Both the position numbers and the translations under genes were made by a program. DNA of 47,611 bases from Escherichia phage vB_EcoS_swi2. The stretch is from sequence record NC_054649.1; one strand, given 5' to 3'. The notes beneath the pieces are model-generated. The model was not told the origin of the DNA. It made no database searches and saw only the letters and a list, made by a program, of their open reading frames with translations. This document shows positions 4,735 through 47,206 of the stretch, one piece after another (the stretch's first letter is position 1; each line of letters starts with the position of its first letter).

Positions 4735-6189
<1,455 letters not shown>

Positions 6190-6277
6190 TCATAAGTGCA
6201 GCTAGTCCGGCCAGATGAAAAGCGATTGGTTATCGCCTGCTGCATCACTTCAAACCACCTTTAACCGAGGATTCAAT

Positions 6278-7156
6278 ATGAGTAAGTCAACCGCTGAAGA
6301 ATTTATTATAAAAGCCAGAGGTATTCATGGTGATAAATATCTTTATGATGCTGTTTCTTATATAAAAAGTTCGATAAAGGTAAAGATAACATGCCGTAAG
6401 CATGGGCTATTTGAGCAGACTCCAAACTCTCATTTGAATGGAGCTGGATGCCCTTCTTGCTCTGGAAATAAGAAGAAAACAACGCGTGAATTTGTGGCTG
6501 ATGCGATTGCAAAGCATGGTGACTCTTATGATTATTCTAAAGTTGAATACAGAGGCGGTCACAAGAAAGTAAAAATAATATGCAAAGTACATAATTTTGA
6601 GTTTTCTCAGGAGGCCAACAGCCACCTTAATGGGTGTGGTTGCCCTGTTTGCGCAAGGGAGAAAATTACAGCATCTGTAACTAAGGGGTTCAATAAGTTC
6701 AAGAAAGATGCCATTATAATTCATGGGAATAAGTACCATTATGATTGCTTGTCATACATTAATGTGACAACAAAAATGAGAATAAAATGCCCAGAGCATG
6801 GGTGGTTTACAAAGACGCCAGATAAGCATCTCCAAGGGCAAGGTTGCCCTCATTGCTCCAAGGGAGGTTTCAAGCTGAAAGAAAAGGCCTTTGTTTACTT
6901 CTTGTTCTCAGGAAACGAAATTAAAGTTGGGATCACTAACAATCTTAGGCGTAGAGTTTGTCAGTTAAAGAAAAACACACCATTTGATTTTCACGTCATA
7001 TCAAAAATAAAGACAATAGGTAGTGATGCCCTTGCTATTGAAAAGTACTATCATAAGAAATACGAAAGTGCAGGACTGACAGGGTTTGATGGCGCAACGG
7101 AGTGGCTTAAATATTCACCTGAATTAATGGATGAGATAATGAACAAAGCCCCGTAA
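6278..7156 (+). CDS. T5orf172 / GIY-YIG-like domain protein with three tandem Cys/His zinc-finger repeats (putative homing endonuclease)
   Basis: Three about 45 aa repeats each with C-x-x-HG ... HL-x-G-x-GCP-x-C; C-terminal VYFLFSGNEIKVGITNNLRRR motif typical of T5orf172; GAGGA RBS before ATG 6278; AT-rich; opposite strand to flanking tail genes. Confidence 0.6.
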   Translation: MSKSTAEEFIIKARGIHGDKYLYDAVSYIKSSIKVKITCRKHGLFEQTPNSHLNGAGCPSCSGNKKKTTREFVADAIAKHGDSYDYSKVEYRGGHKKVKIICKVHNFEFSQEANSHLNGCGCPVCAREKITASVTKGFNKFKKDAIIIHGNKYHYDCLSYINVTTKMRIKCPEHGWFTKTPDKHLQGQGCPHCSKGGFKLKEKAFVYFLFSGNEIKVGITNNLRRRVCQLKKNTPFDFHVISKIKTIGSDALAIEKYYHKKYESAGLTGFDGATEWLKYSPELMDEIMNKAP

Positions 7157-10313: not shown

Positions 10314-10319
10314 ATTATA
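10314..10319 (-). promoter_or_regulatory. Minus-strand -10 element (TATAAT) upstream of the chaperone gene
   Basis: Perfect TATAAT on minus strand about 20 nt upstream of ATG 10293. Confidence 0.3.
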
Positions 10320-10333
10320 TCATCTCAGTGGTG

Positions 10334-10362
10334 TTGACACCTGCTAGGTGGTGATGTAGATT
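10334..10362 (+). promoter_or_regulatory. Sigma70-type promoter TTGACA-N17-TAGATT
   Basis: -35 TTGACA 10334-10339, 17 nt spacer ending gtgatg, -10 TAGATT 10357-10362; 35 nt upstream of ORF 10398. Confidence 0.6.
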
Positions 10363-10397: not shown

Positions 10398-10712
10398 ATG
10401 ATTAATAAGAAAATTATTATTTGTGGTTTGTCAGCGGTATTTCTGATTGGCGCAATGCAGGTAGCTGTCATGCTTGGGTTTATGAAGCCTCTATTCATGT
10501 TCAGTTATAGCGGAGCAATACAGAGCGTATCACTGTTATTTGTTATTGGTTTAGTTATTTTTGTGTACCTTTTGCCTGCATTTGTGGCGCTACAACGCAA
10601 GCATGTAAACACAACAGCAATTTGCGTGCTGAATATTTTTGCTGGCTGGTGTTTCTTTGGTTGGGTGGCTGCACTGGTTTGGGCTTTGGTTAAAAGTGGC
10701 GACAAGAAATGA
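10398..10712 (+). CDS. Small integral membrane protein (accessory gene; candidate superinfection-exclusion type protein)
   Basis: 104 aa with several long hydrophobic segments; own promoter; plus strand inside minus-strand tail cluster. Confidence 0.5.
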   Translation: MINKKIIICGLSAVFLIGAMQVAVMLGFMKPLFMFSYSGAIQSVSLLFVIGLVIFVYLLPAFVALQRKHVNTTAICVLNIFAGWCFFGWVAALVWALVKSGDKK

Positions 10713-10852
10713 ACGAACAAACAAAAGCTGACCTGACTTTCTACACTGAATTGTATGTTGATGCTGGTTATGACTACGAAGAAGCAGAGCGAATGGCAAA
10801 AGACCTGCTTCGTGTGATTGGTGTGATTTTTGATGAGGATAAGGTGATATGA
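10709..10852 (+). CDS. Small acidic hypothetical protein
   Basis: 47 aa ORF with ATGA start/stop overlaps to both neighbours. Confidence 0.35.
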   Translation: MNEQTKADLTFYTELYVDAGYDYEEAERMAKDLLRVIGVIFDEDKVI

Positions 10853-11049
10853 GCCAGTGGATTAAGTGTAGTGATAGGATGCCTGAAGAAGGCGAGATGG
10901 TTCTCACAGCATTTCGTGGTGTCGTTAGAACTGCGGTATGTAAAGTTATCGACAACATTGGCAGTAAGATTTTTGTTAGTGAATTAGAACGCTGTCACGG
11001 CATTCCAGCTACCCATTGGGCCAATCCACCAGAACCACCACAAGAATAA
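10849..11049 (+). CDS. Hypothetical protein (DUF551-like N-terminus MSQWIKCSDRMPEEG)
   Basis: 66 aa ORF, ATGA coupled, followed by terminator. Confidence 0.4.
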   Translation: MSQWIKCSDRMPEEGEMVLTAFRGVVRTAVCKVIDNIGSKIFVSELERCHGIPATHWANPPEPPQE

Positions 11050-11831: not shown

Positions 11832-11840
11832 GATTATATC
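11832..11840 (-). promoter_or_regulatory. Extended -10 promoter element (TGnTATAAT) on minus strand upstream of major tail gene
   Basis: Minus-strand TGATATAAT about 35 nt upstream of ATG 11796. Confidence 0.35.
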
Positions 11841-11847
11841 ACAGGTG

Positions 11848-11876
11848 TTGACAGTGATTATTTTGTGGTGTAGATT
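11848..11876 (+). promoter_or_regulatory. Sigma70-type promoter TTGACA-N17-TAGATT driving the noncoding/tRNA region
   Basis: -35 TTGACA 11848-11853, spacer ends gtggtg, -10 TAGATT 11871-11876; no plus-strand ORF follows, tRNA lies downstream. Confidence 0.5.
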
Positions 11877-12344
11877 GTATTTCAGATAGTTTTCGTGAGC
11901 GACTTTGCGGACTTTTTAGAAACTGATCACAAAGATAAATGCAAACGAAGAAATGTATCTGGCCGTAGCTTAACAGCTAAACACAAGTGAGGTATTCCAG
12001 TTCCTCATCAACGAATCTTGCGCACTGGCCCGGTGTGATTAATAATGGGCACACAACGGAAAGAGCATTACTGGTGACGGAGACTAGCGATTAGCTATAT
12101 GCGAAAGTTCTAGAAGCCAAGGCGGTTCGACTCCGCAAGTGCTCTTTCCGGTGTGGTGAATGCGCAGGCTGATGCGCGCAGGAGAGCTTCGGAAGAACAA
12201 GGTGCCTGTATACAAGCCGGAGATCAGCACCGGCCACCACAATACTTAACATCCAGCATTATCGCAATCATATGTAGGGGTATGTATGGGTTACGGGGCT
12301 GGATGTTAAGAAAGCACGCTGGCAATGCTTAAACCAGCACTTAT

Positions 12345-12421
12345 GGACGCGTAGCTTAATTGGTTAAAGCAACCGACTCATAATCGGCTGATTGAAGGTT
12401 CAAATCCGTCCGTGTCCACCA
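12345..12421 (+). tRNA. tRNA-Met (anticodon CAT; could alternatively be Ile2-type)
   Basis: Acceptor GGACGCG pairs with CGTGTCC, D-stem GCTT/AAGC, anticodon loop CTCATAA, T-loop TTCAAAT, 3-prime CCA encoded; terminator follows. Confidence 0.75.
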
Positions 12422-12866: not shown

Positions 12867-12994
12867 TACCTATGTCACGTAGGCGTGGAACCCGAAACGA
12901 CACACAGGCAACAATGAATTTAACGCCCTTGTCAGTATGGTTTGTTGCAACCATGTTCCACCTGACAGGGGCGTTTCCCTTTTGGAGTGAGTAA

Positions 12995-13486
12995 ATGATT
13001 TCAGAGCGGGATTACATAGCAATCGCGTCAAGGGTTAAATACGACCCGATTACCGGATTGTTCACCTGGGCTGTAAGTTGCGGGAAAATATCAAAAGGTG
13101 ATATTGCAAATTATCACAACGACGCAGGATACATAACACTTGGGAAGAAAAGATTAAGGGCGCACCGAGTGGCTTGGTTTATCCATTATGGATATGTCCC
13201 TGAGCATGAAATTGATCACATAAACAATATTCGTGATGACAATAGAATTTCAAACCTGAGGGAGGCCAGTGACTGCGAGAACGCAAGGAACACAAAGATA
13301 TCTAAATCAAACACGTCTGGATATAAAGGAGTTCATTTTTGCAAGTACACGGGAAAATGGAGAGCCACGGTAAAGATGCATGGGAAAAGCTATCATCTTG
13401 GTAGGTTTTCAGACAAAGAAGCCGCCCATAAAGCCTATTGCAAAAAAGTAGATGAACTGTTTTTGGAGTTCGCAAACCACGGCTAA
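12995..13486 (+). CDS. HNH homing endonuclease with C-terminal AP2 DNA-binding domain
   Basis: HNH_3-type motif AHRVAW...EIDHINNIRDDNRISNLR followed by AP2-like SGYKGVHF...GKWRATV...GKSYHLGRF; opposite strand to flanking structural genes; AT-rich. Confidence 0.8.
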   Translation: MISERDYIAIASRVKYDPITGLFTWAVSCGKISKGDIANYHNDAGYITLGKKRLRAHRVAWFIHYGYVPEHEIDHINNIRDDNRISNLREASDCENARNTKISKSNTSGYKGVHFCKYTGKWRATVKMHGKSYHLGRFSDKEAAHKAYCKKVDELFLEFANHG

Positions 13487-15667: not shown

Positions 15668-15713
15668 GTTTAAATCTCCTGTTGTTTGATTAGCATGATT
15701 TTAGCATATTACT

Positions 15714-15742
15714 GTTGACGTAGATTTGTGTGGAGTTTATAG
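15714..15742 (+). promoter_or_regulatory. Sigma70-type promoter TTGACG-N17-TATAGT
   Basis: TTGACGTAGATT then -10 TATAGT 15737-15742; second copy of GTGACGTAGAAAC motif just downstream. Confidence 0.55.
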
Positions 15743-15784
15743 TTAGTGACGTAGAAACAACAATAAATGTTAGAGGTGAGTGAT

Positions 15785-16093
15785 ATGAAAGATGAATTTA
15801 AAGGCACAAAAGGTCAGTGGACCAATCATTCTTTATTTACTGGTGAAGCGCGTACATCAATTTGGTCTGGTGATATTTATGTAGCAGAAGTAATGAGTGT
15901 TAGGGAGTCAGAATCGGTGAAGAAGGCTAACTCAAATATTATCGCTGCAGCGCCAGAATTACTCGAAGCACTTCGCCAGCTTCGCGATTATGTTGAGGAT
16001 GTTTGCGCAGTATCGTCTGATGATTGCCATGAGGAACACCCATTAAATCTGGCAAACAAAGCAATCAAGAAAGCATTAGGAAAGAAGCAATGA
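15785..16093 (+). CDS. Hypothetical protein, paralog of 28232..28525
   Basis: Shares EFKGT-G-W N-terminus and IAA-P-LL-AL-QL central motif with 28232..28525; GAGGTGA RBS. Confidence 0.5.
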   Translation: MKDEFKGTKGQWTNHSLFTGEARTSIWSGDIYVAEVMSVRESESVKKANSNIIAAAPELLEALRQLRDYVEDVCAVSSDDCHEEHPLNLANKAIKKALGKKQ

Positions 16094-16899
16094 AAACACT
16101 AAGCAAAATCTATTCAGACAAAGAAACGCGCAACGGTATCGCAGTCAACAAAACCTACCTCGTGCCAGTGGAGCAAATCTATCTGGAGCCGGGATACAAC
16201 ATCCGTGAAGCAGATGAGCAGCACGTTGAATATTTCGCACAGTGCTGGGAATCAGGTCAGCCACTGCCAGCATTAACAGTTATTCCTGACGAGAAGGGGA
16301 TACGCATTCTTGATGGTCAGCATCGCTATCTCGGCGCATTGCGTGCCATTGAGCGTGGCGCACCAATCGCTCGTATTGAGTGCAAGGATTTCACTGGCGA
16401 TGAGGCGGACAAAATTGCCTTCATGGTGTCATCCAGTCAGGGTAAGCAGCTTGACCCGTTTGAACGCGCAAAGGCTTACACACGACTGAAAGGCTTTGGC
16501 TGGACTAACGAGGAAATCGCCAAGAAGGTAGGTCGCTCAGTATCTGACGTGCAAATGCACCTGTCGCTGGGTGATGTTCCGGCCGAAGTAAAAGCACGCA
16601 TCAGTGCAGGACAAATCAGCTATGCAAACGCCGTAGCGGTAACGCGTGAGCATGGCGACGATGCGGTTAAAGTCATCGACGAGGCAGTAGAAGAAGCCAA
16701 AGCACAAGGTAAGGACAAGGTCACAGCGAAGGTGCTGAAGTCGAAAAAGATTAAGCCAGTAGACCGCCTGATTGAGCTGTTGAAGCAAGCAGATCACGTG
16801 ATTCTCCCTGCTGGTCATTTTGTGGCAGAGGATGAGGAATTTATCCAGATTCCTGTTGCTGATATTCACGAGGTCATGGCAATTCTGGAGAAGATGTGA
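16090..16899 (+). CDS. ParB-like N-terminal domain protein with HTH
   Basis: ILDGQHRYLGA motif (ParB/sulfiredoxin-type) and HTH-like WTNEEIAKKVGRSVSDV; ATGA overlap with upstream gene. Confidence 0.65.
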   Translation: MKTLSKIYSDKETRNGIAVNKTYLVPVEQIYLEPGYNIREADEQHVEYFAQCWESGQPLPALTVIPDEKGIRILDGQHRYLGALRAIERGAPIARIECKDFTGDEADKIAFMVSSSQGKQLDPFERAKAYTRLKGFGWTNEEIAKKVGRSVSDVQMHLSLGDVPAEVKARISAGQISYANAVAVTREHGDDAVKVIDEAVEEAKAQGKDKVTAKVLKSKKIKPVDRLIELLKQADHVILPAGHFVAEDEEFIQIPVADIHEVMAILEKM

Positions 16900-22168: not shown

Positions 22169-22505
22169 GGTTAACTCTCCACGGTTAGTTTGTGGTCGAA
22201 TTATAACACAGGGAGATATAGCACCATGAGGCGGTAGCCAGCGCAAATAATGGCGAATTGGTGAGTGCGTATAGCGTGAGAAAGTAAGTGATAGGGATTA
22301 TGTTCATGGGCTACCTCCTGATTAAATGATAGCAGCCCATGATGAACAAAAGATATACGGAGTTAGTCTGAAATCACATCATCCATAAATGCAAGTGCAG
22401 CACCTGACAGGCAGAACAGAGCGCCATAGCAAATCATCTGGTACAGAGTGTCAGCCTCAAATACCCTTGCGAATGCGTAGGCTGATAATATCCAAAGCAA
22501 TGGAA

Positions 22506-23519: not shown

Positions 23520-24014
23520 TCATACTCTTGCTTCTTGCGTTTGGCTTTTCCCATGATGACCTCTTGCGCTGCGAAGAAGTGAATTAAACAGGTTGCTCAC
23601 ATTTACTTCCTGCTCCCGCCATGAGTAACGCCACAACTTCTTGTGGTGGTCATAACTTCTCGTCACATCGCCGTTGTGAAACATGATGCGGATGCGGCTT
23701 TTCACTATTCGGTAATCAATGCCAGTGGCTACGCTGATTTCTTTCACTTCCGCACCAGAGTTATCAAGCAAATGGCACTTAATCGCACCATCAATACCAG
23801 CGGAATCATCAGAGATAAAATATTTATACTGCCACTTCCCGCCGCGAATCACTGACTTCTCACGGCGAATAAAGCCAAGCGCAAGCATCTCATGTAAGCG
23901 ATGTGTTGTGGTGCTTGAATGCTTACCGCCGCAATGCTTTTCAATATATGCACGCGTTGCTCCTGGGTGATTCATAATCACGCGCATGATTTGTGATTTA
24001 TAATCCATAATCAC
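23520..24014 (-). CDS. Hypothetical protein, possibly winged-helix DNA-binding
   Basis: 164 aa ORF with two basic helix-rich segments; tentative. Confidence 0.35.
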   Translation of the reverse strand: MIMDYKSQIMRVIMNHPGATRAYIEKHCGGKHSSTTTHRLHEMLALGFIRREKSVIRGGKWQYKYFISDDSAGIDGAIKCHLLDNSGAEVKEISVATGIDYRIVKSRIRIMFHNGDVTRSYDHHKKLWRYSWREQEVNVSNLFNSLLRSARGHHGKSQTQEARV

Positions 24015-24698: not shown

Positions 24699-24735
24699 TT
24701 CCACATCACCTTTTCCGTTGTGGTACAATCTACGT

Positions 24736-24773
24736 CAATAAGTATTGACTAAGTGATGTAGAAACGTCAAGAT
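24736..24773 (+). promoter_or_regulatory. Promoter-like region with conserved GTGATGTAGAAA motif
   Basis: TTGACT 24745-24750 and GTGATGTAGAAAC 24753-24765; exact -35/-10 assignment ambiguous. Confidence 0.35.
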
Positions 24774-24797: not shown

Positions 24798-24992
24798 ATG
24801 CCAAGACCACGACGCGAGCCGATGGACATTATCACCAGCATTGTTGAGAAGCGGCAGCCGCTGACACTCCGTGATGTTCGCTACTTTGCCCGTTGCTATG
24901 TGGCGCTGGCTGATATGCCAAAGGATGATATGTACCAGATGATTCGTGAGAATTTTAATGTTGATGAAAATAACCGGGTGACGATGAAATGA
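24798..24992 (+). CDS. Hypothetical protein
   Basis: 64 aa ORF with GAAGGAG RBS. Confidence 0.4.
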   Translation: MPRPRREPMDIITSIVEKRQPLTLRDVRYFARCYVALADMPKDDMYQMIRENFNVDENNRVTMK

Positions 24993-27693: not shown

Positions 27694-27736
27694 TCTGCCT
27701 CCTGTTCAAATAATGATTAATTCTATCACAACGACT

Positions 27737-27765
27737 ATTGACGTAGATTGAGTGGTGGTGCATAG
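27737..27765 (+). promoter_or_regulatory. Sigma70-type promoter TTGACG-N17-CATAGT
   Basis: TTGACGTAGATT followed 11 nt later by CATAGT; same architecture as 15714..15742. Confidence 0.5.
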
Positions 27766-27798
27766 TATCTACATCAAATGGTGAGTGAGGTGGTGGAT

Positions 27799-31826: not shown

Positions 31827-31871
31827 ATGTCACCGATAAAAAATCCCTCACGATGGAGGGATTATAGCATG

Positions 31872-33366: not shown

Positions 33367-33573
33367 TTACCCTCTCAAAAAATCATTCTTGCAGCAGATA
33401 CCTTTGTACCCGCGCTTCTCTTGCAGGTTAACGAAAACATCATCCAGAACGCGCAGCAGGAAATCCTCGTCGATATCATACCGACGGCAAATCACATCAT
33501 CAGGCACGCCAGCGCGCGCCAGTGAATAAACCTGCTCTTTTTCCTCCTGTGTGAATCCTGCATAGCTGCGCAT
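33367..33573 (-). CDS. Hypothetical protein
   Basis: 68 aa ORF. Confidence 0.4.
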   Translation of the reverse strand: MRSYAGFTQEEKEQVYSLARAGVPDDVICRRYDIDEDFLLRVLDDVFVNLQEKRGYKGICCKNDFLRG

Positions 33574-33670
33574 AGTGGTATCTCCGGTAAGCCTGATGTA
33601 GATATACTATGCGCTCGGTGTAGATTGGTCAAGTGTGGTGATGCGGATTTATCAACAATAATAATAAATG

Positions 33671-33699
33671 TTGAAGTGGATATAGTGGTGATGTAGAAT
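33671..33699 (+). promoter_or_regulatory. Sigma70-type promoter TTGAAG-N17-TAGAAT
   Basis: Spacer ends ggtgatg, -10 TAGAAT 33694-33699; three more copies of the TGATGTAGA motif lie within 100 bp upstream. Confidence 0.5.
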
Positions 33700-36086: not shown

Positions 36087-36163
36087 AGATAAAACCTATC
36101 AATATTCCGCTTTTTTTCCGTTATTCGATATTGTAACAGATTCTACACCATGACGTTAATGGC

Positions 36164-36190
36164 AAAAAAAGAACCCGCACAAGGCGGGTT
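36164..36190 (-). terminator. Minus-strand rho-independent terminator separating early-left genes from packaging genes
   Basis: aacccgc / gcgggtt stem followed on minus strand by CTTTTTTT. Confidence 0.6.
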
Positions 36191-36394
36191 AAAGGTTGGG
36201 TGATGATATGAGTGAAGCAATGGTGGTTATGCGTTTATTGTACACCATCACTATCACGCTTGCCAGCATAGCACCATGCGTTTTCTGTTTGCGTCTGCAC
36301 ATGAACGATTTCAAGCGCATCAGGGAATGTCTTTGCCACCTTAGCGATGAAATCGTCCAGTTCGTGCTGTTTCGCGAGTTGCCAAACTTTCTGT

Positions 36395-38257: not shown

Positions 38258-38286
38258 AATCTACATCAACGATGATTCTACGTCAA
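38258..38286 (-). promoter_or_regulatory. Sigma70-type promoter on minus strand, TTGACG-N17-TAGATT
   Basis: Minus strand reads TTGACGTAGAATCATCGTTGATGTAGATT; drives leftward early genes. Confidence 0.6.
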
Positions 38287-38292
38287 CAGCAA

Positions 38293-38675
38293 GTTACCCA
38301 AATAACGCAAAATCCGGTAACTCGGAACATAAAAACCGGTAACTGTTACAAATCAATTACTTATGTTGTTTTATACCATTTTTGCCATTAAAAAGTTACC
38401 GGAGTTACCGGTCGTCCGGTAACTTGAAACCCGCGAACAGCAAGGCTCTCAGGCGAGTTACCGGATTTACCGGGTAACTCCTTACATATATAAAAGGGTT
38501 GAATTTCTTATTATATATATGATTTATAAGCATTTTATTCAATTTTGATACAAATTCTCATTTTTGAAATTTTTATAGACTCATATGCAAAAAATCCGGT
38601 AACTCCGGTAACTCTATATCTATCAGTAACTTGCATCGGTAACTGATCGGTAAAAACCCGGTAACTCCGGTAACT
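38293..38675. repeat. Iteron array: at least 12 copies of CCGGTAACT / AGTTACCGG in both orientations flanking an AT-rich core (putative origin or operator region)
   Basis: Copies at 38314, 38336, 38395, 38403, 38416, 38456, 38471, 38596, 38605, 38637, 38658, 38667 plus variants; AT-rich about 100 bp at 38485-38590; no ORF. Confidence 0.7.
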
Positions 38676-38715
38676 ACTGTAAAGATGTGTAAGTTAGAAC
38701 GTTATCTTGCTGTCG

Positions 38716-38744
38716 TTGACGTGTACATAATATTCATGTATATT
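38716..38744 (+). promoter_or_regulatory. Sigma70-type promoter TTGACG-N17-TATATT for rightward replication operon
   Basis: -35 38716-38721, -10 38739-38744, AAGGAGGA RBS and ATG at 38770. Confidence 0.55.
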
Positions 38745-38769
38745 TTTTACATCACAAAAGGAGGACTGA

Positions 38770-39048
38770 ATGTACCCAGATGGCACTAAATTAATGTTTG
38801 CATACGAGCTGTTATCTTCAATGAAATCTGGAGAACTGGTTGGTATTCACTTCGAGAATGAATACTCAAGCGAAATAATCAAAGGAGAAAAGGAAAATTG
38901 CTGTTGTGTAGTGATCGATGAAAAGTACCGCATGACGCACAACATGTTCAGGTCTTACTGCACCAGAATAGCCAATGAACAAGGTATGGTCATCAAAACA
39001 AAAACCAGTGAAAGCAAAAAATTCATGTATATCTGGAGAGTCCTCTGA
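38770..39048 (+). CDS. Hypothetical protein, first gene of rightward operon
   Basis: 92 aa ORF with strong RBS. Confidence 0.45.
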   Translation: MYPDGTKLMFAYELLSSMKSGELVGIHFENEYSSEIIKGEKENCCCVVIDEKYRMTHNMFRSYCTRIANEQGMVIKTKTSESKKFMYIWRVL

Positions 39049-40676
39049 TGACTGATTCAAAGCAAATCATTGAACTAAAGGAATCTCTTAAGCCAACAGG
39101 TAAGCCTGATTCTGGAAATCCACTTGATGAAATTGACGTGCCAGAATTCCGTGAAGGATACAAAATTCCTCCTGGCTCTCTTGGTGAATTCATGTGCGAG
39201 ATAGAGAATCATTTTGAAAATCGCGAAGAAGGAGAGGTATACCGATTGCCGGGTGCTATCGCGCTTGCTCAGGTGATGGCTGGCAGATACATCATTGGCC
39301 CAAGCGCAAAAAACAAGTGTGCGACGGGGACATTTATTGTTGGTCGATCTGGCGCAGGTAAGGGTGCTCCATCTGATTTTGTTAAGGCTTACGCAGAGAA
39401 TCTTGGAATAACTCCTCGCGTATCAAAAAGCACCGTAACATCATTGCGACAAATCAAAGAACGACTAATTGAGGCTGATGGTTTCTTGCTTTATATCGCA
39501 GATGATTGTCCTGAACACCTTCAGGCTTGGTCAGATACGCGCTCACCGCTTGGTGAAACAGCTTCATGGTTCAGGACGTCGATTAGTGGTGACTGGTTCC
39601 CTGAGTCTCCTGTCGTTACATTGTTTCAGGAGAAGCTGGCTAGTGCTCAAAACCCGAAGTTAATACTCTCTGCTGCGCAGGCTCAGGGGTGGATGATACC
39701 TCGCATAGGTGAATCTGATGGCGCTATAGATTATCGCAGACTTGCGAAAATGAACCATGATATTGGAAGAAGATTAAATCACGCCATGCAATGTTATGAC
39801 CTGTGCATTAACGAGAAGGGAATACAGAACGTAAGGTTCATTCCTTTCATAACTGTTACCCCAGAACAGGGGATTGCAACAGTAAGGAGATGGGAAAAGG
39901 ATGGCGGCATGGGCAGATCTCTTTTCATTAAAGGCCATGAACACATGCCAGAACTTAAGAATACTCCTGACATGGAAATCAATAAAACAATAATAAACGA
40001 ATGGAAACCAAGAATTCCAGGTGGATTCTTTAATGTGGAATATGCAAATGATGGCGTTTCGAAATACTATGAGATGTTGCGCAGGCGCATAGATAAGTCA
40101 AGCAACATTCCCGGTGTAATTGGTAGCGTCGGCCCTCGCTCTGCTCAGATGGTTATTGAGCTTGCGACTCTTTGCGCTTTTGCTGACTTATCATCGCGCA
40201 ATGGCATGACTCCGCAGATAAGGGAATGCCATATTGAATGGGCGTATGCAACAGTAATGAACAGCATGTACGATCTGCGTGATTATCTGGAGGGAGAAGC
40301 AGAGTTTGACGGACTTGAAAACACTGAGTGGGACAACATTGTTATGAAGGTTAAAAAATGCATTGAATCAAAGGCTTTCGCTGAAAAGCCTTATATTTCA
40401 GTGGTAAAAAACAAACTTTGTCGCGACAGAATCAGTAAGATAATTTCCGCCGCCGATTCAAACTCAATTCAGGTTACGCCGGATAAATTTACTTACGAGG
40501 TCATCATTGCCATCTCTGAAAACAGGCATTCACCAATAGAGCTTGACCCAGAAAATCCATCCAATATCCGGCTTTCTGGTGGCGGTTCATGGTCTGGGTT
40601 GCGGATGAACTCATCAGTCAGGAATATCCTGTCATCAGCAATGAAGCGAATGAGATTTATGAGGAACTTGAAATGA
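39048..40676 (+). CDS. P-loop NTPase, putative replication initiator or helicase-type protein
   Basis: 542 aa; Walker A-like GRSGAGKG; located next to putative origin and primase. Confidence 0.45.
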   Translation: MTDSKQIIELKESLKPTGKPDSGNPLDEIDVPEFREGYKIPPGSLGEFMCEIENHFENREEGEVYRLPGAIALAQVMAGRYIIGPSAKNKCATGTFIVGRSGAGKGAPSDFVKAYAENLGITPRVSKSTVTSLRQIKERLIEADGFLLYIADDCPEHLQAWSDTRSPLGETASWFRTSISGDWFPESPVVTLFQEKLASAQNPKLILSAAQAQGWMIPRIGESDGAIDYRRLAKMNHDIGRRLNHAMQCYDLCINEKGIQNVRFIPFITVTPEQGIATVRRWEKDGGMGRSLFIKGHEHMPELKNTPDMEINKTIINEWKPRIPGGFFNVEYANDGVSKYYEMLRRRIDKSSNIPGVIGSVGPRSAQMVIELATLCAFADLSSRNGMTPQIRECHIEWAYATVMNSMYDLRDYLEGEAEFDGLENTEWDNIVMKVKKCIESKAFAEKPYISVVKNKLCRDRISKIISAADSNSIQVTPDKFTYEVIIAISENRHSPIELDPENPSNIRLSGGGSWSGLRMNSSVRNILSSAMKRMRFMRNLK

Positions 40677-41946: not shown

Positions 41947-41975
41947 TTGACTGTGATGTAGAATCATTGTAATTT
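41947..41975 (+). promoter_or_regulatory. Sigma70-type promoter TTGACT-N17-TAATTT
   Basis: Contains conserved GTGATGTAGAATC spacer motif. Confidence 0.45.
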
Positions 41976-44580: not shown

Positions 44581-44983
44581 TAGCGGTATATGGGTATTTG
44601 ATAGCGGTTATCGCGGAGAATGCCCAAAAGAGGAGATCGACCAGATGGGTTACGGTACATGGATGCAACACCGTTTCCCTGATGTTCTGTGGTTTCACGT
44701 CCCGAATGAAACAGGAACATCCAGCCGCGTCCAGTTCGTACTGAAGCGCCAGAAGATGGGTGTTAAGACTGGAATAGGCGACAATGTGATAATGACGCCT
44801 GGAGTGAAGCACACTTGCGGAATGATTGAGGCAAAGCGCCGCGATAAAAGCAAAAGCAGAGTGAGCAAGGAGCAATCTACTGTATTAACTGAGATGTGCA
44901 GGCTTGGTCATTATGCCGCAATAGCTTATGGGCTTGATGAATTAAAAAAAGCTACTTTATTCTATTTTGGACTTGATGAATGA
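44567..44983 (+). CDS. VRR-NUC domain nuclease
   Basis: GTG start with AAAGGGG RBS; PD-(D/E)XK-like core with conserved Glu and Lys; adjacent to SF2 helicase. Confidence 0.6.
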   Translation: MKQLDSGIWVFDSGYRGECPKEEIDQMGYGTWMQHRFPDVLWFHVPNETGTSSRVQFVLKRQKMGVKTGIGDNVIMTPGVKHTCGMIEAKRRDKSKSRVSKEQSTVLTEMCRLGHYAAIAYGLDELKKATLFYFGLDE

Positions 44984-45001
44984 CGTAGATTGATGTAGAT
45001 T
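44973..45001 (+). promoter_or_regulatory. Sigma70-type promoter TTGATG-N17-TAGATT
   Basis: Two tandem TGA(C/T)GTAGATT motifs; -10 TAGATT 44996-45001. Confidence 0.45.
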
Positions 45002-45032
45002 CAATTACACAATGACAAGTGAGGTGATGAAG

Positions 45033-45209
45033 ATGGATATTGAGATTCCGGATAGTTTTGATGCTGAGTGGCAATGCGAAATGCTACGCAATCTTCTTGT
45101 TAAGTTAAACGAACTTGATGATGGAGGTTATGTTGTCAGCGATGGTTATTCATTGCTTGATGATGCAATGAAAATTGTCGAAGCGTTACGTGAATACAGT
45201 GGTGATTAA
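45033..45209 (+). CDS. Small acidic hypothetical protein
   Basis: ATG 45033 with GAGGTG RBS at correct spacing. Confidence 0.35.
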   Translation: MDIEIPDSFDAEWQCEMLRNLLVKLNELDDGGYVVSDGYSLLDDAMKIVEALREYSGD

Positions 45210-46148
45210 ATGAAAGTCTATTTCAATAATGAATTAACTAATGAGCAATACCACGCTGACACAGAGCACATCAACGGTTCTGGCCTGTGGAACATTTATG
45301 ACCGCTGCCCCGCAGCTTGGCGCTACAAAGACGAAGAAGATGAGCAGTCAAAAGCTCTTATCTTCGGAACCGGAAGCCATACGGCTCTACTTGAACCTGA
45401 GCGCTTTGATGCGGAATATGCTCGCATGCCAACCAAAGAAGATTTTGGTGATGACCTGCTTGTTACTGTAAGCGATATGAACTCATGGGCGAAAGAGCGC
45501 GGCATTAAAGGACTATCAGGGAAGTCGAAAGCTGAGGTGATCAAAATAATTCGTGCAACTGGCGAACCAGTGAAGATTTACGACGAAGAGCGTCTTATTG
45601 CTGAAATTAACGCCAATGGTCGCACTCTGTTAGAAGGTGATGATTATGACGTCATTCAGCAAATGCGTGCTGTAATTCACGCAAACAGCTATTACAGCAG
45701 CCTTCTTGCTGGTTCTTATGCTGAAGTATCAATCCTCGGTGAGCTTTACGGGGAAAAGGCAAAGGTTCGGTTTGACTGCCTGACAAAAGGTGGTGACATA
45801 ATTGACTACAAGACAGCGGTAAGCGCCAAGCCTGATGAGTTTTTCCGTCATGCTGCGCGACTTGGCTACTTTATGAAGATGGCGATGCAGCACGACATGT
45901 TTGTTGCGGCATACGGTCATGCGCCGCGTTCTGTAAACCTTTTAGTTCAGGAAAAGAAAGCGCCGTTTATTCCTGCGTTAATTCTCTTGACTGAAGAGCA
46001 ATTACGCATCGGTCGCATTCAGTTGAATGGTGCAATGGAAATTTACAAGGCGTGTAAAAAAGCCAATTCATGGCCGGGTTATTCAATGGGTAATCCTGTT
46101 ATCGAAATGGAAACGCCTGAGTGGTTCAAGAAACAGTTTAATTTATAA
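45210..46148 (+). CDS. PD-(D/E)XK family exonuclease (recombination exonuclease)
   Basis: 312 aa; D ... IIDYK catalytic-like motif; gene context with AAA_24 ATPase and SSB. Confidence 0.6.
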   Translation: MKVYFNNELTNEQYHADTEHINGSGLWNIYDRCPAAWRYKDEEDEQSKALIFGTGSHTALLEPERFDAEYARMPTKEDFGDDLLVTVSDMNSWAKERGIKGLSGKSKAEVIKIIRATGEPVKIYDEERLIAEINANGRTLLEGDDYDVIQQMRAVIHANSYYSSLLAGSYAEVSILGELYGEKAKVRFDCLTKGGDIIDYKTAVSAKPDEFFRHAARLGYFMKMAMQHDMFVAAYGHAPRSVNLLVQEKKAPFIPALILLTEEQLRIGRIQLNGAMEIYKACKKANSWPGYSMGNPVIEMETPEWFKKQFNL

Positions 46149-46165
46149 TTAATGAGGTGATGCAA

Positions 46166-47206
46166 ATGGGTATTCTCAATATCAAACCAGCAGAGCGTTC
46201 AGGTTCTCGTGTGGTCATCGGTATTTCAGGTCAGTCTGGTAGTGGTAAAACATATAGTGCACTTAAGCTGGCGCGAGGTATGGTTGATTCACCAGAGGAA
46301 ATCGGATTCCTTGATACTGAAAACGGTCGCGGTCGCCTGTACTCAAACATCCTTGATGGTAAATTCCTGCACGCTGATATGTATGCTCCATTCAGCCCGG
46401 CTCGCTACCGTCAGGCCATTGAAGAGTTTCAGGTTGCTGGCGTTAAGGTTCTTGTTATTGATTCTGGCTCGCACGAATGGGAAGGGGAAGGAAGTTGCAC
46501 GGAGATTGCTGAAAAGCCTCTTCTTAACGGTAAAAAGATGGCTGACTGGAAGCGCGCCAAAGCTGAACACAAGAAGTTCATGAACGCCATGCTACAAAGC
46601 AATATGCATATCATTGTCTGTCTTCGCGCTCGCCAGAAAACTGACTTCGCAAACCCGAAGGAGCCTGTATCACTTGGGTTGCAGCCAGTGTGCGAGAAAG
46701 ATTTCATGTTCGAGATGACCGTGAGCATGATGATGCACGATGGAGGCAAAATTCAGGAGTTCACCAAACTACCAGAAGAGCTACGTCCAATCTTCTTTGA
46801 GTCTGGTCGTGAAAGTGTTCGTCATGGATACATTGGCGAGGCTCACGGTCGCGGACTCATCAAATGGGTGGACTCTGGCGTTAAAGTTGACGAAGAATTT
46901 GAGTCATGGCGCTCACGACTTCAGCTTTCCGCCGCAAAAGGCATGGAAGGCCTGAAGGAAGAAGCAAAATCAATACCTGATAACCTGAAAGATAAAATTC
47001 GAGCAATCTGGCCTTCTCTGGCTGCTTCGGCCGCAGAATATGATCGCATTGAGTCTTTCATCAATGATGAGCAATTATCCCCTGTGGTAATAACTCCTCA
47101 GGATAATTTCAACCCTGCAAAACTGGCCAAACAGCAACCACAGCAGCCAGAACAGCAGGAAGAAACAAAAACCGAACATAAACCAACTCCAATTGAAGGA
47201 TTTTAA
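46166..47206 (+). CDS. AAA_24-type RecA-fold ATPase (putative recombination protein)
   Basis: Walker A GQSGSGKT, FLDTENG motif, GAGGTGA RBS before ATG 46166. Confidence 0.6.
   Translation: MGILNIKPAERSGSRVVIGISGQSGSGKTYSALKLARGMVDSPEEIGFLDTENGRGRLYSNILDGKFLHADMYAPFSPARYRQAIEEFQVAGVKVLVIDSGSHEWEGEGSCTEIAEKPLLNGKKMADWKRAKAEHKKFMNAMLQSNMHIIVCLRARQKTDFANPKEPVSLGLQPVCEKDFMFEMTVSMMMHDGGKIQEFTKLPEELRPIFFESGRESVRHGYIGEAHGRGLIKWVDSGVKVDEEFESWRSRLQLSAAKGMEGLKEEAKSIPDNLKDKIRAIWPSLAASAAEYDRIESFINDEQLSPVVITPQDNFNPAKLAKQQPQQPEQQEETKTEHKPTPIEGF

Follow-up and report, generated by a model that had tools for sequence, protein, structure and literature searches.

Which element marks the promoters of Escherichia phage vB_EcoS_swi2, and is it a promoter sequence or the binding site of a regulator? 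The question arose at positions 27737-27765 of the phage sequence (NC_054649.1), analysed here over its full 47,611 nucleotides (nt; hereafter the window), where an initial annotation had seen one copy of a recurring consensus, TTGAC(G/A)-N17-TAGA(T/A)T with a conserved gtgatg spacer, and had proposed either a phage-specific promoter class or operators overlapping host sigma70 promoters. Our analysis showed that the repeated unit is an asymmetric box of 10 to 13 bases, the GTAGA box, with the core TGAYGTAGAW (K-TGAYGTAGAW-W-S-A when the flanks are included), and that about 13 sigma70-type promoters on both strands have this box within positions -34 to +7. On balance, and with modest confidence, we read the box as the operator of a phage-encoded global regulator, set in the core of early/middle sigma70 promoters.

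Counts and genomic placement of the GTAGA box

A motif scan of the whole window, coding sequence included, counted 14 exact matches to TGAYGTAGAW where 0.25 were expected, a number that none of 100 shuffled sequences reached. All 14 exact copies were non-coding, in a genome whose non-coding share is 10.4% (P ~1e-14, or ~1e-10 if the copies are counted as 10 regions), and three one-mismatch variants were located at additional promoters. A scan with a position weight matrix gave no extra strong site; all strong sites, together with the variants at 11865 (+) and 36138 (-), were non-coding. The element thus recurs, far above chance and outside coding sequence, at all the places where it had first been listed.

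The form in which it had been described needed correction. A strict scan with TTGAC(G/A)-N17-TAGA(T/A)T returned three sites (10334, 11848 and 38286-38258 on the minus strand) against 0.03 expected, and a relaxed -35 added two more (33671, TTGAAG, and 44973, TTGATG). The TAGAWT -10 that was thought to be consistent is present at five of the roughly 13 promoters and absent from the rest, the -10s at 15715, 24745, 38716 and 41947 being TATAGT, CAAGAT, TATATT and TAATTT, respectively. The gtgatg block, taken for a separate feature of the spacer, is the 5' half of the box. At the site of the initial annotation itself the -35 starts at 27738 rather than 27737 (15714 was likewise one base early, for 15715), the -10 is CATAGT/TAGTAT rather than TAGAWT, and the second box copy (27767-27776) is inverted.

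The window comes from a small virulent siphophage in the Skate/E1/Sa179lw group and represents, with its 47.6 kilobases (kb), an essentially complete genome. Its nearest records (Bas77-80, Sa179lw, IME207, Sf11 and C1) are about 90% identical and mosaic, and its capsid protein shows 96-99% identity to its counterparts in Skate, seszw and Vi II-E1. The gene map, made with a self-trained codon-bias model, places about 85 genes in some 20 alternating transcription units, which are closed, as had been noted, by strong hairpin terminators, mostly bidirectional. The minus strand carries the tail, tape-measure, major-tail, capsid, lysis, portal and terminase genes and three small-gene clusters, and the plus strand carries the immunity genes, tRNA-Met, the ParB-like operon, small genes and the replication and recombination genes.

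On this map the box was present in 8 of the 10 divergent gaps and in two same-direction gaps (36087-36234 and 44984-45026), and was absent from all the gaps between convergent units, which hold terminators. The statement that it occurs in every intergenic switch region holds for these eight divergent gaps and fails for 6085-6277 and 12867-12994, both of which adjoin homing-endonuclease-like genes. Three such genes are found in the window, at 6278-7156 (+), 12995-13486 (+) and 42043/42079-42654 (+); one is of the T5orf172/MUG113 type with a zinc finger and two are HNH_3+AP2, and their presence is patchy among relatives.

Registers and conservation of the box

Sigma70-like promoters (a -35 near TTGACA, a spacer of 16-18 nt and a -10 whose second base is A and whose sixth is T) were called with a scanning tool independently of the box, and the transcription start was set 7 nt past the -10, so that all positions given here refer to predicted starts. 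The scan called promoters at 10334, 11848, 15715, 24770 (-), 27738, 33632 (-), 33671, 38286 (-), 38716, 41994 (-) and 36159 (-), while the sites at 24745, 41947 and 44973 were read by eye. The number of sigma70-like matches in the genome did not exceed that in shuffled sequences; therefore the placement of the promoters, and not their number, is informative. The 14 exact copies all lay within -34 to +7 of a predicted promoter, as did the three variants with one mismatch, and the sole copy farther out was a weak downstream match at +18 to +27 of the promoter at 44973.

In a first register, at -17 to -8, the box is direct and supplies the -10 TAGAWT. This is the case of TGATGTAGAT at 10352-10361 (+), which covers the -10 of promoter 10334-10362 (TTGACA-N17-TAGATT) upstream of the superinfection-immunity unit 10398-11049, of the variant TGGTGTAGAT at 11866-11875 (+) in promoter 11848-11876 (TTGACA-N17-TAGATT) 5' of tRNA-Met, and of TGATGTAGAA at 33689-33698 (+) in promoter 33671-33699 (TTGAAG-N17-TAGAAT). 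It is also that of TGATGTAGAT at 38259-38268 (-) in promoter 38286-38258 (-) (TTGACG-N17-TAGATT), which drives the small-gene cluster 38227<-36235, and of TGATGTAGAT at 44991-45000 (+) in the internal promoter 44973-45001 (TTGATG-N17-TAGATT), which drives the recombination genes 45027-47206.

In a second register, at -34 to -25, the direct box supplies the -35 TTGAC: TGACGTAGAT at 15716-15725 (+) covers the -35 of promoter 15715-15743 (TTGACG-N17-TATAGT) of the ParB-like operon, TGACGTAGAT at 27739-27748 (+) that of promoter 27738-27766 (TTGACG-N17-CATAGT), the site first annotated, and TGACGTAGAA at 38276-38285 (-) that of promoter 38286-38258 (-). The box lies in the spacer, direct and between -28 and -17, at four promoters. 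These copies are TGATGTAGAA at 24754-24763 (+), at -26 to -17 of promoter 24745-24773 (+), TGATGTAGAA at 41954-41963 (+) in the plus-strand promoter 41947-41975, TGACGTAGAT at 44981-44990 (+), at -27 to -18 of promoter 44973-45001, and the variant TGGTGTAGAA at 36141-36150 (-), at -27 to -18 of the promoter at 36159 (-) and directly 5' of the extended -10 TGTTACAAT (36138-36130) of the terminase unit.

Other copies lie at the predicted start or are inverted. Direct copies at -3 to +7 were found at promoter 15715 (TGACGTAGAA, 15747-15756, +), where the copy is unchanged in 7/7 aligned genomes and its TAGAAA, with no T at -7, is excluded as a sigma70 -10, and at promoter 24770-24741 (-) (TTGACG-N18-AATACT; TGACGTAGAT, 24728-24737, -), which drives the small-gene cluster 24698<-22363. 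Inverted copies at -6 to +4 were found at promoter 27738-27766 (TGATGTAGAT, 27767-27776, -), at promoter 33632-33604 (-) (TTGACC-N17-TAGTAT; TGATGTAGAT, 33594-33603, +) and, in degenerate form, at promoter 38716-38744 (+) (TTGACG-N17-TATATT; TGATGTAAAA, 38745-38754, -), which drives the replication unit 38770-40676. The copy at 41954-41963 is also inverted at -4 to +6 of the primase promoter 41994-41966 (-) (TTGATT-N17-TACAAT), and that at 24754-24763 is also inverted in the spacer (-29 to -20) of promoter 24770 (-); the spacer of promoter 33632-33604 (-) holds a further degenerate inverted box (GGTGTAGATT, 33616-33625).

These positions bear on the explanation that the box is a plain promoter consensus, in which strong early sigma70 promoters share an ancestry and the optimal sequence of a -35 TTGAC and a -10 TAGAWT with contacts upstream, host RNA polymerase is the only reader, and the extra copies are tandem or divergent promoters. 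The halves of the box resemble a -35 (TTGAC) and a -10 (TAGAWT), so that the box can be written into either hexamer; five promoters use it as the -10 and three as the -35, the boxes of same-direction gaps always point to the downstream gene, and the proximal copy, read as a -10, usually lies 19-29 nt from the start codon. However, GTAGA after TTGAC and TGAYG before TAGAWT are conserved like the hexamers and lie outside the known sigma70 contacts, and the TG conserved in the -10 register falls at -17/-16, not at the extended -10 position (-15/-14). Moreover, the copies that end in TAGAAA are invariant although they lack the essential T at -7, and they, the copies at +1 and the inverted copies (four promoters have an inverted copy at +1) cannot serve recognition by RNA polymerase, in which the spacer copies have no role either. 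We consider a plain consensus rather unlikely. A sigma70-dependent pause element was also envisaged for the copies at +1 and was ruled out, inverted copies being found at the same place.

In the comparison with relatives, each genome had 9-14 copies of the 10-mer, placed at orthologous promoters: this held for Bas80, Sa179lw (Buchananvirus), Vi II-E1 (Macdonaldcampvirus), CF-SP1 (Swiduovirus), the Klebsiella phage KP591P3 and pYD38-A (Roufvirus). The seven fully scanned relatives belong to several genera and comprise phages of Escherichia, Salmonella and Klebsiella and one whose recorded host is Vibrio. Ten regions aligned in seven genomes had invariant box copies and hexamers, while the spacers and flanks drifted. 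The promoter of the ParB operon reads TTGACGTAGATTG-N12-TTATAGT-N3-TGACGTAGAAACAACA in nearly all the genomes aligned, and both of its box copies were kept in almost all of 20 further IMG/VR loci. The portal-cluster promoter of CF-SP1 has retained its inverted +1 copy with no gene in the direction of the copy, which faces the 3' end of the terminase gene; this too is at odds with a plain consensus. In a distant lineage (L030, L031 and L236, whose ParB-like protein is 67-71% identical) only the GTAGAT core was left: TTGACY-N9-GTAGATAWTAATCTAC lies directly 5' of the ParB-like gene and holds a 16-bp palindrome, GTAGAT-N4-ATCTAC, and ATCTAC copies lie past the -35 and at +1 of another promoter. 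A pooled alignment of 67 distinct upstream regions was uninformative, two clusters being arranged differently.

Phage E1 (L003) has single-base changes in box cores (GCAGA, CCTAC and GTGGA) at the sites orthologous to 27738-27776 and 15716-15725. These sites are exact in all the other genomes and the -35 and -10 hexamers of E1 are intact; judging from the sequence, the changes may represent natural operator-down variation.

The 10-mer is thus kept as one unit whichever way it points and at any of the four registers (-35, spacer, -10, +1). With this freedom of orientation and register, the box resembles an operator and amounts to more than two promoter hexamers. It is a recurring unit that goes beyond the needs of RNA polymerase, invariant in four registers and seven genomes with diverging flanks, and it overlaps the RNA polymerase footprint. 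Of the two original proposals, that of operators overlapping host sigma70 promoters fits this conservation across registers and orientations, with boxes invariant while spacers drift. That of a phage-specific promoter class stands in a weak form, in that the boxed promoters are a functional class, that of early, replication and accessory genes, set apart from the extended -10 promoters before structural genes; a special polymerase or sigma was not found in scans of about 70 predicted proteins, and the geometry is not fixed.

The same observations bear on the idea that the box turns boxed units on, as the site of an activator or of a phage-modified RNA polymerase (MotA-like sigma appropriation, a phage sigma or a phage polymerase). 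Such a motif would likewise be intergenic, gene-oriented in same-direction gaps and conserved in the group. However, scans of roughly 70 predicted proteins with Pfam or PHROGs found no RNA polymerase or sigma gene, the occurrence of the box in at least five registers and both orientations is incompatible with an activator or promoter element of fixed geometry, and the boxed promoters, with a near-consensus -35 and 17-nt spacing, should need no activation. This makes an activating element very unlikely.

Two promoter classes

The genes located behind boxed promoters are the immunity genes, tRNA-Met, the ParB-like gene, a RusA-like gene and adjoining small genes, small-gene clusters of unassigned function, a primase/helicase-like gene that adjoins an iteron-rich candidate origin, and genes for a primase, a helicase, an exonuclease and an AAA_24 protein. 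Virion, lysis and packaging genes were found behind promoters of another kind. The extended -10 pattern TGnTAnnAT occurs 29 times in the genome, of which 15 are non-coding against 3 expected. Ten extended -10 elements, at 2346-2354, 4913-4921, 6167-6175, 10314-10322, 11833-11841, 15698-15706, 22200-22208, 27720-27728, 31861-31869 and 36130-36138 on the minus strand, lie 27-87 nt 5' of the tail-fibre, tail, minor-tail, tape-measure, major-tail, head-accessory, capsid, lysis, portal and terminase units and have no good -35. The Klebsiella relatives have kept these elements. The small-gene clusters of the minus strand are transcribed from boxed promoters, and each is followed by an extended -10 promoter for virion genes; the cluster that precedes the portal unit and that which precedes the terminase unit end in a terminator. 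The boxed promoters look like an early/middle class and the extended -10 promoters like a late class, as judged from gene content.

On the reading of the box as an operator, we infer the binding of a protein, repression rather than activation, the timing and the nature of the binder, as follows. Upon infection, host RNA polymerase would fire the roughly 13 promoters with near-consensus -35 and -10 and so transcribe the ParB-like operon, genes for replication and recombination, and accessory or anti-defence genes. One of the early products would be a sequence-specific DNA-binding protein, which would accumulate and occupy the boxes. Because every box lies within -34 to +7, a bound box would exclude or trap RNA polymerase, and the whole class, including the promoter of the regulator itself, would be turned off together. 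The structural, lysis and packaging genes would escape through their box-free extended -10 promoters, which, being independent of a -35, would also survive a factor that blocks sigma region 4.

Several features of the boxed regions stand beside this scheme. In 24721-24773, three candidate promoters are placed face to face in about 50 bp with two boxes between them: TTGACT-N17-CAAGAT (+), TTGACG-N18-AATACT (-) and an extended -10, TGGTACAAT (+), the -35s overlapping the opposing -10s. The tRNA-Met (CAT) gene is located at 12345-12421 (+), about 470 nt 3' of the boxed promoter at 11848; a tmRNA called by ARAGORN at 12047-12421, which overlaps it, is probably spurious. In the region 38290-38690 the 9-mer CCGGTAACT is repeated at least 12 times, on either strand and in several cases as 9-bp tandems; the repeats flank an AT-rich core (~38485-38590) inside a 542-nt gap that precedes a gene of 92 amino acids (aa) and the 542-aa primase/helicase-like gene (PHROG 3022). 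This region looks like a candidate replication origin with iterons.

Candidate regulators and comparison with known systems

Three conserved DNA-binding candidates were present in every relative and in the viable 36.5-kb minimal genome of a seszw mutant (PMC9825161). The first is a ParB/KorB-like helix-turn-helix (HTH) protein of 269 aa (16090-16899, +; PHROG 1033), with two boxes at the promoter of its own operon. It matched Pfam HTH_ParB (2.4e-11) and KorB (2.3e-6) and, among PDB structures, Spo0J (1vz0, E = 1.5e-12) and KorB (8qa8, 2e-3), Noc being also matched. In its N-domain (residues ~74-80) DGQHRY takes the place of the GERR motif (GERRxRA in chromosomal ParB), and DG(Q/H)HR(Y/F) was found in 6/6 aligned homologues. 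We take DGQHR to be a signature of DndB-type ParB/Srx-fold regulators.

The second candidate is a predicted winged helix of 64 aa (24798-24992, +), the first gene 3' of the two-box promoter region. Its model (pLDDT 81) has the topology a1-b1-a2-a3-b2-b3, its top Foldseek hits were all winged helices (E >= 0.19), and its homologues in L030, L236 and L238 also adjoin GTAGA copies; on this model, a monomeric winged helix would suit an asymmetric site that is free of orientation. The third is a predicted three-helix HTH of 68 aa (33367-33573, -), the first gene 3' of the boxed promoter 33632-33604, whose model (pLDDT 74) gave NarL/GerE/sigma-region-4-like hits (E >= 0.2). Both small families are confined to this phage group. 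A MarR-like protein (23520-24008, -) was disfavoured as the binder, its gene being deleted in the viable seszw mutant, in which the boxes stay. Among the sites of host FNR, CRP, MetJ, NarL, IHF and DnaA, we know of none that fits the box.

The presence of a genuine ParB-family member raises the further explanation that the boxes are parS- or OB-like loading sites for a ParB/KorB-type protein, serving DNA organisation, replication, packaging or long-range silencing by a sliding clamp, and are found in promoters only since coding sequence cannot hold them. The matches to Spo0J, Noc and KorB speak for it, as do the 80-98% conservation of the protein in every relative, its retention in the minimal genome, the two boxes at its operon promoter in all genomes and the GTAGAT palindrome of the distant lineage directly 5' of its gene; inside the phage group the box always accompanies the protein. 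Outside it, one exact box each was found 5' of the homologue's operon in ep3 and Vibrio phage 2.096.O, and a one-mismatch box 5' of the operon holding the homologue in ECO1230-10, which is suggestive only. However, the boxes of the window are asymmetric single units, unlike the palindromic parS and OB, they are confined to RNA polymerase footprints with none in terminator or convergent gaps, and the CTP-binding motif GERR is replaced by DGQHRY. In addition, the box was not enriched at 58 distant homologue loci from IMG/VR (4 copies in 635 kb, where 4.8 were expected), and neither a ParA nor a KorA partner was noticed in the window. We give loading sites a small probability. The unrelated myovirus ep3 (L006), whose ParB-like homologue is 50% identical over the N-terminal 214 residues, has in its genome an over-represented palindromic 10-mer, ACAATCATTG/ACAATGATTG, with 6 copies of each.

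A bolder form of the operator reading would assign the early-to-late switch to the ParB/KorB-family protein with its degenerate DGQHRY nucleotide-binding motif. Retargeted from a palindromic parS to an asymmetric box that mimics both hexamers, it would silence the roughly 13 scattered promoters, its own included, while the extended -10 promoters express the virion genes. We hold this version to be improbable; if it were true, the RK2 KorB regulon would have its counterpart in a phage, where the site is recognised in a new way.

The following points weigh against an operator of a phage-encoded global regulator in general. Our search of the literature on this phage group found no binding, transcript-start or time-course data, and the early and late timing is taken from gene content alone. 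The register pattern is partly trivial, the box resembling the -35 and -10 hexamers, and most inverted copies lie in divergent regions and could belong to promoters of the opposite direction. For the 64-aa and 68-aa proteins the folds come from models of single sequences, and their Foldseek scores are weak (E >= 0.19). None of the three candidates was linked to the box by covariation, the ParB-like protein showing no such link at the 58 distant loci and the small proteins being confined to the group.

The family to which the window belongs has genomes of about 46 kb and more than 10 genera, including Skatevirus, Buchananvirus, Macdonaldcampvirus, Swiduovirus and Roufvirus. Its phages are widely isolated for the biocontrol of Salmonella, E. 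coli and Klebsiella and have been used in genome minimisation, and their gene regulation is undescribed. The box and the extended -10 class provide a testable map of the whole transcription programme, with about 13 putatively regulated early promoters and about 10 putative late promoters, and single out three small conserved genes that are candidates for a master regulator. In engineered phages, early genes should become derepressed when a deletion or insertion takes out a box or the regulator, and the boxes would be a ready-made set of phage-controlled promoters.

We found no published description of the GTAGA box in the literature on related phages and genera, whose genome papers give generic promoter predictions or a different motif predicted with PHIRE. 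The latter, TAATAGnnTACTATT, was reported as 'phage promoters' of the Kagunavirus phages Golestan and fBC-Eco01 (PMC7203180 Table S4; PMC9825357). Like the box, it recurs in the intergenic regions of small enterobacterial siphophages without a phage RNA polymerase. Unlike the box, it is a palindrome of another sequence in another phage group, read there as a promoter of a phage polymerase without evidence, and the identity of the two motifs was rejected since their sequences differ.

The T4 middle (MotA box) and late (TATAAATA) promoters resemble the boxed promoters in that a short phage motif marks a temporal class read by the host core polymerase. However, the MotA box is fixed at -30, replaces the -35 and needs AsiA and MotA, and the late promoters need gp55 and gp33, whereas the GTAGA box varies in position (-34 to +7) and orientation and leaves a near-consensus -35 in place, and the Pfam and PHROG scans detected no such factors. 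Neither the phage polymerase or sigma gene nor the fixed orientation and distance of T7-type or T4 late-type promoters was found.

Phage repressors that overlap early promoters are known from phi29 (p4/p6 at A2b/A2c-A3), P22 (Arc/Mnt) and lambda (Cro at OR). By analogy, a small phage DNA-binding protein would here sit over early sigma70 promoters in divergent regions, late promoters escaping or being favoured. These repressors act at one or two control regions, unlike the 10 or so scattered regions and 20 or so alternating units of the window, whose late promoters also differ in type (extended -10). Nothing homologous to p4, Arc or Cro was found among the window proteins.

KorB of the IncP plasmid RK2, which works with KorA, is a ParB-family HTH protein with about a dozen copies of a short operator over the promoters of the genome; some operators overlap the -35, the operon of KorB itself is included and many operons are shut down together. 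The window likewise encodes a ParB-family HTH protein, which matches KorB in both Pfam and PDB. The differences are that OB is a 13-bp palindrome whereas the phage box is asymmetric, single and in either orientation (a palindromic site of 13-16 bp was found only in L030, L031 and L236), that six homologues have DGQHRY or DGHHRY in place of the GERR-type arginine patch, that no KorA or IncC partner was seen, that the distant homologues show no association with the box, and that the carrier is a virulent phage and not a plasmid. By analogy, the box network works most like the RK2 KorB-OB regulon and the repressors by which phages shut off their early genes.

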